This document shows, one piece after another, positions 52,901 to 55,900 of a stretch of 64,000 bases of DNA. The number at the start of each line of letters is the position of its first letter. Position 1 is the stretch's first letter. The stretch lies in NCBI GenBank assembly GCA_944393665.1, contig CALYAX010000004.1, positions 13,479-77,478 of the forward strand, read 5' to 3'. The position numbers were made by a program. Source of the DNA: an uncultured Alphaproteobacteria bacterium (GTDB lineage: Bacteria; Pseudomonadota; Alphaproteobacteria; RF32; CAG-239).

Positions 52901-55900
52901 GCAGCGTCAGAAGAATGGTGAACAGCAAAGCCAAAAACAAACAGCGCATATTATGCCCCCTTTTTCAAATTATTAATTGAGTTCGCGATAATTAGCTTTA
53001 TACTACAAATATTCGACTCGTGTGACTATAAGTTTTTGAAAGTTATCAGATATGAAAAAAACGGTTTGGGCCCTCTTGGATGACCGCATGGGCAGCATCG
53101 GCCAGGCGCGCGGCATTTTGGGCGTTTTGGACGACAGTTATGATATAATCGAAAAGAAAATCGTTTACAACCGCTGGGCCAAACTGCCAAACTGTTTAAA
53201 AGGCGCTTCGCGCCTGGGCATGAACCGGAAAGAGAGCAGCTGTCTTCATGCTCCGTGGCCGGATTTAATCTTGTCAATCAGCCGGCGCACAACCCCGATT
53301 GCCCGCTGGATAAAAAGACAAAGCGGCGGCAAAAGCAAAATCGTTCAGCTGATGTATCCGGGAAAATGCGGGATTAATGATCTTGATTTGGTGATTGTGC
53401 CGGAACATGACCGTAAGCCGGAACGCCGCGGCAACCTGTTTTATATTACCGGTTGCGCGCACAGGGTTTCGGAACAGGCCCTGGCCGAAGCGCGGCAGAA
53501 ATGGACGCCGGTATTTGCCTCCCTGCCCCGGCCCTGGACCACGGTAATTATTGGCGGGGCCATTAAAGATGCGCCTTTCAGCGAAGAAAATGCCCGGGCC
53601 CTGACGGCGGAAATCCGGCGGATTTATGACCAAAGCGGCGGCTCTGTTTTGATCACCACTTCACGGCGTACCGGAGTCGCGGCAGAGCGGATTATCAAAG
53701 ACGGGCTGAAAGATATTCCCGCCTATACCTATTGGTGGGGCGAGCAAAAAGAGAATCCGATTATGGGTTTTTATGCCTGCCCGGAGAGGATTATTGTCAC
53801 CGGAGATACGGTCTCCATGTGCAGCGAATCCTGCGGGTCGGGCAAACCGGTATTGATTTTCTGCGGCAAAAACTGGCTGCGCCCCAAACATCTGCGGTTT
53901 GTCCGCTCTTTGTATGACGGCGGATTTGCCTGCGCGGCTGACGCTCCGGACGCTTTGAGTTTTAAACCCCGGCAGCGGCTGGACCCGGCCCGGAAGATCG
54001 CGGCAGAAATTGCCAGGCTGTTCTAAAATTCCCGTATTTTAATATAAGTTTTTGCTTTAGAAATCCGGCAGAAAATAACCTTCTTCTTCGACCGGGGCCA
54101 TTTCTTCAGCCTGTTTGACCGGGTTTTCCTTACGGGTGGCAACCACTTTTTGGAACATACGGCCGAAATAGGTGCTTTTCCGCCACAGGTATTCGGTTTT
54201 CCTTTCGGCAAAAGTATCTATCTCACGGTCCCAGAGCTTTTCGGCAAAGGGGTGAAACAGGCGGTTATGCATGCGGACCAGATAGCGCAGCGGATGCCAG
54301 GGCAAAGGATTATGCCAGTCAACGAAAACCGCACTTCCTCCTTCTTTAACAGCCCGGAGGGCATTGTTAATGACTTTGCCTTTGGTAACGACCGGCAGTT
54401 CCGAAAGCAGGAAAAAGCATATGACCGCGTCATATTTTTTCTCAAATTTAAATTCGGCGGCATCATAATTCCAAATGTTCATGGCCGGATAAATATTGCC
54501 GTATTTTTCCTTGTTGCGGGAAACCTGCAGCGGGTTGACATCTATCACGTCAAACTGGCCGTAAGCACCGATACGCTGTGCCACCTGGTCGATTTCATTG
54601 CCGAAAGTCAGCCCCATCTGCAATACCGATTGATTCATTTTAACTTCGCGCAACATGGAATTTATCAGTTTTTGATACTGATAAAACGTACGTTTACGCG
54701 CCGAACCGACGGTGTCGAGCTTTGAACTGTTTTCCAGATTGTTGTAAACATTGCCGTAAATCAGCGAGGTATAAGCGGGAACTTTGACTTCTTCCGGCAA
54801 AACAAAGAAGTTTTCCTCACTGATATTATCATCACTGGCATAACCGCTGAATTCGCTAAAATCATCATTCATAACTGGGACTTCCATTTTTCAAAATAAG
54901 GGATTAATTCGGCAATACTTTGTTCAAAACACTCCCGGCAATCGTTAATCTGCCGGGGCAGGCCGTCAAGATGGCGGCGGTTGAGAATATTTTCCTCAAC
55001 CTGCGAGCAGCGGCGCGAAAACTCGTCCAGGCCGAAGACCTGGCTGGAAGATTTCCAGCTGTGAAAGGTTAAACGCAGCTGCTCGCTGGCAACCGGAGGG
55101 AGCGCCGACCAGGACTGATGAGCCTGTTCCAGATATTCGCCCCACAAAGCCGCCAGCTTGGACAGGCCGAAAATATGCTGGTATTCGTATAAATGTTTCC
55201 AATTCACCAGTTTATTCATGCGTGTCTATCAACCCCAGACGGGTTGCCTCTACAACGGCACCGGTGCGGTTATACACGCCGAGCAGCTTCAAAATGGCGG
55301 TGACATGCAGTTTGACCGTACCTTCCGTCAGCCCGAGCTCATAGGCAATCACTTTGTTGGATTTGCCGCGGGCAATCAGTTTAAGCACGTCAATCTGGCG
55401 GGGGGTAAGAATTTTGATTTTGTCTTCAACCCTGGAAGCCACGGGAACGGTTTCTACCTGTTTTAAAAGGTCAAACTCTTCCGGGGCAGTTTCTTTCAAC
55501 AGCTCGGGCGGAATATAAACCCCGCCGGAAAGAACCAGATTTACCGCGCTGATAATGACGGCGTTGCTGGCAGTTTTGGAGATATATCCGGCAGCACCCA
55601 GCTCAATGGTTTTGTGAACCACCTCTTTGTCAAAAACCGCCGAAAGAATGATAATCGGTGTTTCAGGCAGTTTTTCATGAATGGTGCGGACAGCCTCCAG
55701 CCAGCCGGAGCCGGGCATCGCCAGATCTGTCAGGATCAGGTTAAAATCGGTTTGCTTTTTAATGATGTCAAAAATTCCGGTATAACTTTTGGCAAAGACC
55801 AATTCGGCACCGGGCAGGGCGTCGCTTAAAATCAGCTCCAGCCCTTTTAAAAACAATTCATGATCATCGGCAACCAAAATCTTCATTAATTTTTCTCCCT

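Follow-up and report, generated by a model that had tools for sequence, protein, structure and literature searches.

Why would a gut bacterium in which we find no quinone pathway keep a gene for an enzyme that modifies quinones? The question is raised by a gene of the RquA family in a stretch of 64,000 nucleotides (hereafter, the window; contig CALYAX010000004.1, positions 13,479 to 77,478, GenBank assembly GCA_944393665.1) from an uncultured alphaproteobacterium of the order RF32. RquA proteins have a class I S-adenosylmethionine (SAM) methyltransferase fold and, with Mn2+, move the amino group of SAM onto ubiquinone, yielding rhodoquinone. An original prediction, made from the sequence of the window, had called the product an RquA-like enzyme and suggested that rhodoquinone serves fumarate reduction at low oxygen here, with imported ubiquinone or a repurposed enzyme as the fallback. 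The reading that we favour, with a probability of roughly 0.45, is that the product would carry out RquA-type chemistry on a benzoquinone that the cell does not make.

Identification of an RquA-family gene

54057..54887, minus strand: RquA-family gene, an open reading frame (ORF) of 276 amino acids, assigned by a full-profile NF038261 match and by tree position.

The ORF exists as predicted, and every motif quoted for it could be located: DVNPLQV at residue 116, YDAVICFFLLSELP at 152, VDWHNP at 189, WHPLR at 197, PFAEKLW at 213, REI at 221, YFG at 240 and MFQKVVA at 244. The true start is probably Met6 (position 54872), giving 271 amino acids, because its ATG shares bases with the TGA that ends the Hpt gene before it (ATGA). 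The N-terminal half had been described as divergent. This holds for the first ~35 residues, which are unmatched, but not for the rest: the N-terminal half of the domain aligns well and bears the RquA-type motif I VLQMGLTFGNE. The unmatched extension is acidic (nine D/E versus one K/R in residues 6–35), is disordered in the AlphaFold prediction and is missing in congeners, whose proteins are ~250 amino acids long. A variable, disordered N-terminus is shared with verified RquAs; in the Rhodospirillum rubrum protein, too, the first ~40 residues show no conservation and can be dispensed with (Neupane 2022, PMC9814641).

The curated hidden Markov model (HMM) for RquA, the NCBIfam equivalog NF038261, matches the protein with E = 3.8e-56; the score of 190.3 bits exceeds the curated cut-off of 175, and the model is covered end to end (profile positions 1–218 of 218, residues 36–252). 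The runner-up families, CpaM and UbiE, score <30 bits each, and Pfam returns generic methyltransferase domains only. The protein stays under the cut-offs of two UbiE models (NF001240, 22 bits versus 378; Pfam Ubie_methyltran, 16.8 versus 20.1). Across the order, 114 of 151 orthologues exceed the NF038261 cut-off and the remainder score 134–175 bits. The family is small: a search of 1.8 billion cluster representatives yielded only 183 relatives at E ≤ 1e-10.

The original prediction had proposed a phylogeny with UbiG and UbiE as the check on family membership. In a quick maximum-likelihood tree of 121 sequences (119 homologs plus Escherichia coli UbiE and UbiG, the outgroup branches being long), the gene falls inside the RquA family, apart from UbiE/UbiG; the tree contains no experimentally verified RquA, and the R. 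rubrum sequence is not among its members. All 119 homologs split from the two E. coli proteins with a Shimodaira–Hasegawa approximate likelihood ratio test (SH-aLRT) value of 90. The clade that holds the query has 48 members (SH-aLRT 96) and is nested among clades scoring 250–300 bits on the RquA model. For each of 20 representatives spread over the tree, that model is the sole strong match, with 250–300 bits in the backbone clades and 143–211 bits in the query's clade. The other members of the query's clade are Alphaproteobacteria derived from metagenome-assembled genomes (MAGs), some of them named 'rhodoquinone biosynthesis methyltransferase RquA' by NCBI.

The AlphaFold2 model has a confident class I methyltransferase core (mean predicted local distance difference test score 77; core about 85–95), and a Foldseek search with it returned generic class I SAM methyltransferases, with yeast Coq5 (PDB 4OBW) among the best matches. 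No solved structure was detectable by sequence. The protein thus resembles UbiE, MenG and Coq5 in fold and in weak sequence similarity (17–22 bits on UbiE models), but differs from them in having no GxGxG SAM motif, in scoring far under the UbiE cut-offs and in its place in the tree. The designation 'RquA-like enzyme' is borne out by curated HMM, tree position and motifs. On this evidence we count the gene as a true RquA-family member, though one that belongs to a divergent subclade.

The SAM site and family signatures are retained

The features of the protein used below are these:

54594..54626, minus strand: degenerate SAM motif I VLQMGLTFGNE, residues 88–98, placed by alignment with canonical RquAs and E. 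coli UbiE/UbiG.
54540..54542, minus strand: Asp116, counterpart of R. rubrum D118 (SAM ribose contact; essential).
54462..54464, minus strand: Asp142, counterpart of R. rubrum D143 (adenine N6 contact).
54393..54410, minus strand: post-II motif LLSELP, with Ser162 where canonical LLHE.P has His.
54240..54266, minus strand: conserved block NRLFHPFAE, residues 208–216, order-specific.
54138..54323, minus strand: C-terminal RquA signature region, VDWHNPLPWHPLR ... PFAEKLW ... YFGRMFQKVVA, absent from UbiE/UbiG.

Motif I stands where methyltransferases have (V/I)LD(L/V)GxGxG (VLDLAGGTGD in UbiE), and its Q90 and G96 are conserved in canonical RquA and in the order's sequences alike. Asp116 does not vary within the genus, and its conservation in canonical RquA is 99%; the position of Asp142 holds D or N in all groups. 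The two aspartates are 26 residues apart, versus 25 in R. rubrum, and were mapped by alignment to UbiE and by this spacing, not on the R. rubrum sequence itself. In R. rubrum RquA, D118 and D143 are needed for rhodoquinone synthesis (Neupane 2022, PMC9814641). The C-terminal signatures of the family, D(Y/W)HxP...HPL, PF.E and YFG..QK, are also present. Among the 33 conserved sites of canonical RquA, 23 are identical in the order and one has changed from Y to F; most of the others keep the same plurality residue. HMM match, tree position, class I methyltransferase fold, motif I, the two aspartates and the C-terminal signatures are what the protein has in common with R. rubrum RquA and its verified orthologues (Lonjers 2012; PMC9814641; PMC11707229).

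The order lacks recognisable quinone metabolism

The assembly from which the window comes comprises 1.74 Mb in 42 contigs and is rated 100% complete. The closest named relatives of the gene are from uncultured gut Alphaproteobacteria, including 'Proteobacteria bacterium CAG:495' (62% identity), and further close relatives are in MAGs from roe deer, sheep and human gut; DNA of the species itself was found in chicken and bovine gut metagenomes. Within RF32, the genus is probably CAG-495. We sampled the order with 151 genomes of 1.3–2.0 Mb from 20 genera, nearly all of them MAGs, and nearly all of the 150 further genomes are rated 94–100% complete. The order is one of reduced-genome, fermentative gut Alphaproteobacteria, with Rnf and an [FeFe] hydrogenase gene that has NuoE/F-like neighbours.

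The genome of the query was screened by phmmer with E. coli K-12 reference proteins against all stop-to-stop ORFs. This screen, in which TatC, SucC, Rnf subunits and a NuoF-like protein, encoded next to the hydrogenase gene, were recovered as positive controls, returned no ubiquinone pathway protein (UbiA/B/C/D/E/F/G/H/I/J/T/V/X), no menaquinone pathway protein (MenA–F), no match to complex I subunits NuoA/B/CD/H/J/K/L, and none of FrdABCD, SdhABCD, CydAB, CyoABE or FixABCX. Other quinone-linked proteins (PyrD, GlpD, GlpABC, DsbB, NapC, NrfD, HyaC, NarI and DmsC) were likewise without a match, and no ORF of the genome has two or more CxxCH motifs.

The same absences were found with curated HMMs across the 151 genomes; other alphaproteobacterial genomes and named control genomes score strongly in these searches. 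SdhA/FrdA was found in 0/151 (PF00890 gave Rossmann-tip matches only), as were cytochrome bd (CydA) and ETF-QO, and NuoD in 1/151, the exception belonging to an outlying family. The UbiA family is absent from the query's genome and from 139/151; the other 12 give weak, sporadic matches, one of them annotated, and no quinone prenyltransferase was accepted in any of the 151. Members of the DHO_dh family occur sporadically, as ORFs of ~400 amino acids, in 22/151 and not in the query's genome. The genome check that the original prediction had called for, of ubi genes, complex I and fumarate reductase, accordingly turned up no ubi pathway, no quinone module and no fumarate reductase. We conclude that the order, as far as homology can tell, is without ubiquinone or menaquinone synthesis and without every known quinone-reducing or quinol-oxidising enzyme searched for; non-homologous enzymes would escape such searches.

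An assembly gap does not explain the missing ubi, frd and nuo genes, since the genome is rated complete and the 150 further genomes show the same. Several weak candidates were also set aside. The annotated UbiA-family match is a decaprenyl-phosphate phosphoribosyltransferase (259 bits versus a cut-off of 234) and not a quinone prenyltransferase. The NuoG-like ORF reads by eye as the [FeFe] hydrogenase HydA, flanked by the E/F-like genes, in agreement with the HymABC-type cluster described for related MAGs, and is not part of a complex I. NuoM/N-like hits belong to three antiporter-like genes (Pfam Proton_antipo_M, 87–103 bits) in a genome that has NuoA–K nowhere. The Ndh-like hit turned out to be a fusion of a pyridine-nucleotide-disulphide oxidoreductase and a rhodanese. 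By eye, the UbiU-like hit resembles a U32 peptidase of YegQ type (neither UbiV nor UbiT was found), and the IspB-like hit resembles a short-chain IspA-type synthase. RnfB-like and RnfC-like subunits identify the Rnf complex as such and not as Na+-NQR. The only candidate quinol-interacting protein that we met is a NapGH-like polyferredoxin; it lies in an accessory LarBCE-like island and is present in only 75/151 genomes, and was rejected as an obligatory quinol partner.

Some observations made in passing concern the same genes. The antiporter-like trio lies outside the window (contig C5:82193-86756) and consists of a 568-amino-acid NuoL-like gene, a NuoM-like and a NuoN-like gene, followed by a BirA-like gene. 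It has the appearance of a nuo operon of which only the tail survives, which would suggest descent from a respiring ancestor, and was perhaps kept as a cation/proton antiporter. The accessory island, also outside the window (C19:11589-19926), carries LarB/LarC/LarE-like genes, a putative metal transporter, the NapH- and NapG-like polyferredoxin genes beside tatC, and genes for a Tat-signal flavoprotein and an aldo-keto reductase, these roles having been read by eye. The phosphoribosyltransferase gene (L057, G021:C5:53000-65000) adjoins sugar-epimerase and PgpA-like genes, and the UbiA-superfamily match is sporadic, in 12 genomes; to judge from this, a minority of these bacteria may have an envelope glycan pathway of arabinan type. 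The query's genome has no match for PyrD or any other DHO_dh member, for citrate synthase or for 2-oxoglutarate dehydrogenase E1, suggesting pyrimidine auxotrophy and no oxidative tricarboxylic acid cycle, which fits a dependent, fermentative lifestyle. A genome of the same class and another family (G027, 81% complete; locus L001) has an RquA that scores in the canonical range (269 bits), no SdhA/FrdA and a UbiA-family match of only 22 bits; given its incompleteness, the orphan pattern could stop at the order or reach past it.

RquA is a core gene of the order

Each of the 151 genomes has exactly one copy of RquA, with an intact frame. The ratio of nonsynonymous to synonymous substitution rates (dN/dS) for congener pairs with unsaturated dS is 0.017, 0.058 and 0.075, indicating strong purifying selection; 54 columns are invariant among 23 congeners, and the divergence of RquA among congeners is about equal to that of RsmE and Cmk. 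The genes upstream are:

54869..55219, minus strand: Hpt phosphotransfer-domain gene (Pfam PF01627, 27.4 bits versus a cut-off of 24.6).
55212..55910, minus strand: NarL/FixJ-type response regulator gene (NCBIfam ErdR/NarL/UvrY matches), overlapping both of its neighbours.
55886..56635, minus strand: rsmE, for 16S rRNA m3U1498 methyltransferase (NF008696, 302.7 bits versus a cut-off of 234).

Upstream of RquA, and on its strand, rsmE was found at each of the 43 loci examined. The order of genes Cmk | RsmE – response regulator – Hpt – RquA – (convergent ELM1-like) ... DnaJ-like is found in 25/25 named congeners, and at 18 loci from 17 further genera RquA is downstream of rsmE, on the same strand, every time. 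RquA is therefore a vertically inherited single-copy core gene of the whole order. It is probably co-transcribed with rsmE, the response regulator gene and the Hpt gene and, to judge from the overlapping stop and start codons, probably translationally coupled to the last of these. The RNA evidence for expression consists of a handful of short contigs, from runs whose type is not recorded.

On the other side, an ELM1-family gene (53052-54026, plus strand; Pfam Mito_fiss_Elm1, 231.7 bits) runs towards RquA, the stop codons being separated by only ~30 bp, an arrangement common to all congeners and several other genera. Elsewhere in the window, positions 22001-24000 have a G+C content of 0.355, versus about 0.47–0.50 in the remainder; this stretch could be a foreign insert.

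Possible functions of the protein

The favoured reading supposes that SAM-dependent substitution of an amino for a methoxy group has been retained and would act on a membrane benzoquinone. The substrate would be ubiquinone, or a similar methoxy-benzoquinone, coming from the host, the diet or neighbouring bacteria. The product might work with a redox partner that is not yet recognised, shield the cell from redox-active quinones or serve as a signal; it would act outside the classical chain from complex I through rhodoquinone to fumarate reductase, because that chain is missing here. Retained chemistry is supported by motif I and by D116/D142, by the 23 of 33 canonical sites that are identical in the order, and by the canonical LLHE.P of 18 other genera. 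Quinone scavenging has a precedent: in Stairs 2018 (PMC5953543), rquA-bearing eukaryotes without ubiquinone synthesis are proposed to take ubiquinone from prey. The wider proposition, that an order without respiration keeps RquA as its sole quinone enzyme in order to process quinones made by others, we consider rather unlikely.

Several observations weigh against retained chemistry on an exogenous quinone. We know of no bacterial route of ubiquinone uptake. A consumer of rhodoquinone was looked for in homology searches of the order and none was found, which makes it hard to explain that selection would keep a converter of ubiquinone to rhodoquinone in 151/151 genomes. The order's sequences score 134–225 bits on the RquA model, versus 250–300 for canonical RquA, and sit on a long stem branch. 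Two residues that are ~90% conserved in canonical RquA, the His of LLHE.P and the Glu of L-E-P-F, are both changed in the query, to Ser162 and His212; they may belong to a metal or substrate site. At position 162, His is found in 90% of canonical RquA and in each of the 18 other genera, and only the query's genus departs from it, with S, Q or N. The canonical Glu212 is lost throughout the order, with Gln in most of it and His in 15/17 members of the genus, the query included. The loss of His162 and gain of His212 in the genus may represent a relocated functional histidine. Around the lost Glu, N208, R209, L210, F214 and E216 are each ≥96% conserved in the order and variable in canonical RquA, and this order-specific block, residues 208–216, has arisen in what is likely the substrate-lid region. 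Lastly, inactive RquAs elsewhere mean that family membership is no guarantee of activity: among the 16 RquAs assayed in Chobert 2024 (PMC11707229), none is from this clade and one made no rhodoquinone, and a Desulfobacterota rquA was non-functional in a 2026 survey (PMC13386864).

In the alternative of neofunctionalisation, the enzyme would have been kept, once the lineage had lost respiration, because it took on a new substrate, such as another membrane lipid or a small aromatic compound; it would still use SAM and make no rhodoquinone. This alternative is plausible, although we tend to doubt it. It would account for a universal, strongly constrained gene in an order without quinone metabolism, for the lower HMM scores and long stem, and for the 27 sites conserved in the order alone, among them N208-R209-L210...F214...E216. 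The change of His162 to S/Q/N at genus level, together with His at 212, points the same way, as does the locus, which is one of housekeeping genes (rsmE, cmk) and never adjoins respiratory genes, unlike RquA elsewhere; bacterial rquA is often near respiratory genes according to Stairs 2018 (PMC5953543). However, the SAM site, including degenerate motif I, and nearly all signature residues of the family are kept, the changed His is still present in the other 18 genera, and nothing in the gene neighbourhood points to an alternative substrate. Both halves of the fallback in the original prediction, imported ubiquinone and a repurposed enzyme, thus survive as readings between which computation cannot choose.

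A regulatory or sensory role is improbable. The protein would then bind a quinone or SAM and feed a phosphorelay of Hpt and the NarL-type regulator that responds to gut redox or oxygen, catalysis being secondary. Sensor kinases such as ArcB and RegB take quinones as signals. Hpt is coupled to RquA through ATGA, and a response regulator gene precedes it in 25/25 congeners and many genera; the pair (54869-55910) occurs in the majority of the order's genera, though some lack it. However, response regulator and Hpt behave as optional inserts: at least three genera (g22, g27 and g34) have neither at the locus and still keep RquA. No histidine kinase was found near the pair at the locus, and the conservation of catalytic-type residues favours an enzyme.

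The main inference of the original prediction, that ubiquinone is made or converted to rhodoquinone for fumarate reduction with complex I at low oxygen, is very improbable. Membership of the RquA family speaks for it, as does the established role of RquA in R. rubrum and many bacteria, where the gene is often beside frd. It founders here on the lack of fumarate reductase (no SdhA/FrdA-type protein in 151 genomes), of the complex I quinone module, of which only the NuoL/M/N-like remnant is left, and of any pathway to the substrate.

Least credible of all is a decaying relic of an ancestral respiratory chain, with no present function: the lineage has lost respiration reductively, and the NuoL/M/N-like genes are another apparent remnant, but RquA frames are intact in 151/151 genomes, with dN/dS of 0.02–0.08 and the 54 invariant columns described above.

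Relation to known RquA systems

The comparison with verified RquAs shows differences in the protein (190 versus 250–300 bits, the lost Glu212, Ser162/His212 in the genus and the block at 208–216) and in the host, which has no ubiquinone pathway, fumarate reductase or complex I and keeps the gene with rsmE and cmk. That gut 'CAG' MAGs carry RquA has been in print since 2018, and a genome with RquA alone is listed, without comment, in a supplementary table of 2024. According to Stairs 2018 (PMC5953543), six human-gut 'MAG Azo/Aceto' Alphaproteobacteria carry rquA and may have been the source from which eukaryotes received their Group A genes. These are uncultured, hydrogenase-bearing gut Alphaproteobacteria from the 'CAG' MAG set of Nielsen 2014, probably of the same lineage as the query; their RquAs are placed in Group A near some eukaryotic RquAs. 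Quinone-using enzymes were examined in that paper in eukaryotes only, and in the parts consulted there is no report of missing ubiquinone synthesis or quinone users in the gut MAGs, nor of order-wide core status.

From that source we also take the comparison with the protists Pygsuia, Mastigamoeba and Blastocystis, which likewise have RquA without ubiquinone synthesis of their own. They differ in keeping at least complex II and electron transfer flavoprotein (ETF) as partners, whereas this order has none. Indeed, all rquA-bearing eukaryotes covered there keep complex II and ETF, and protists without all quinone-using enzymes are without rquA (PMC5953543).

Chobert 2024 (PMC11707229) inferred rhodoquinone only where RquA and the ubiquinone pathway co-occur. 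In its Table S1 the gut MAG GCA_928721465.1, a complete one, scores 1 for RquA and 0 for all other quinone genes, oxidases included; that genome was not assayed, nor is it discussed in the sections consulted. The 2026 survey (PMC13386864) ties rhodoquinone to ubiquinone producers. In the open-access literature searched, we found no description of the orphan RquA pattern as a property of an order.

Implications

The literature treats RquA as a marker of rhodoquinone-based anaerobic respiration, and a widespread gut order breaks that pattern in every sampled genome. Two rules are broken: that RquA accompanies the ubiquinone pathway, as in the surveys, and that rquA accompanies complex II and ETF, as in eukaryotes. 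If rhodoquinone is still made, the order would have to import ubiquinone and have an unrecognised use for a low-potential quinone, which would be a new form of quinone cross-feeding in the gut. Were scavenging confirmed, it would be the first case in bacteria in which quinones are obligately scavenged and remodelled by cells that have no known respiratory chain, and would imply either an undiscovered rhodoquinone-dependent process in fermenters or rhodoquinone made for partners or the host. The occurrence of rhodoquinone in mammalian tissues has been reported. If rhodoquinone is not made, the family would have a second activity, and predictions of rhodoquinone that are based on RquA would need a caveat.

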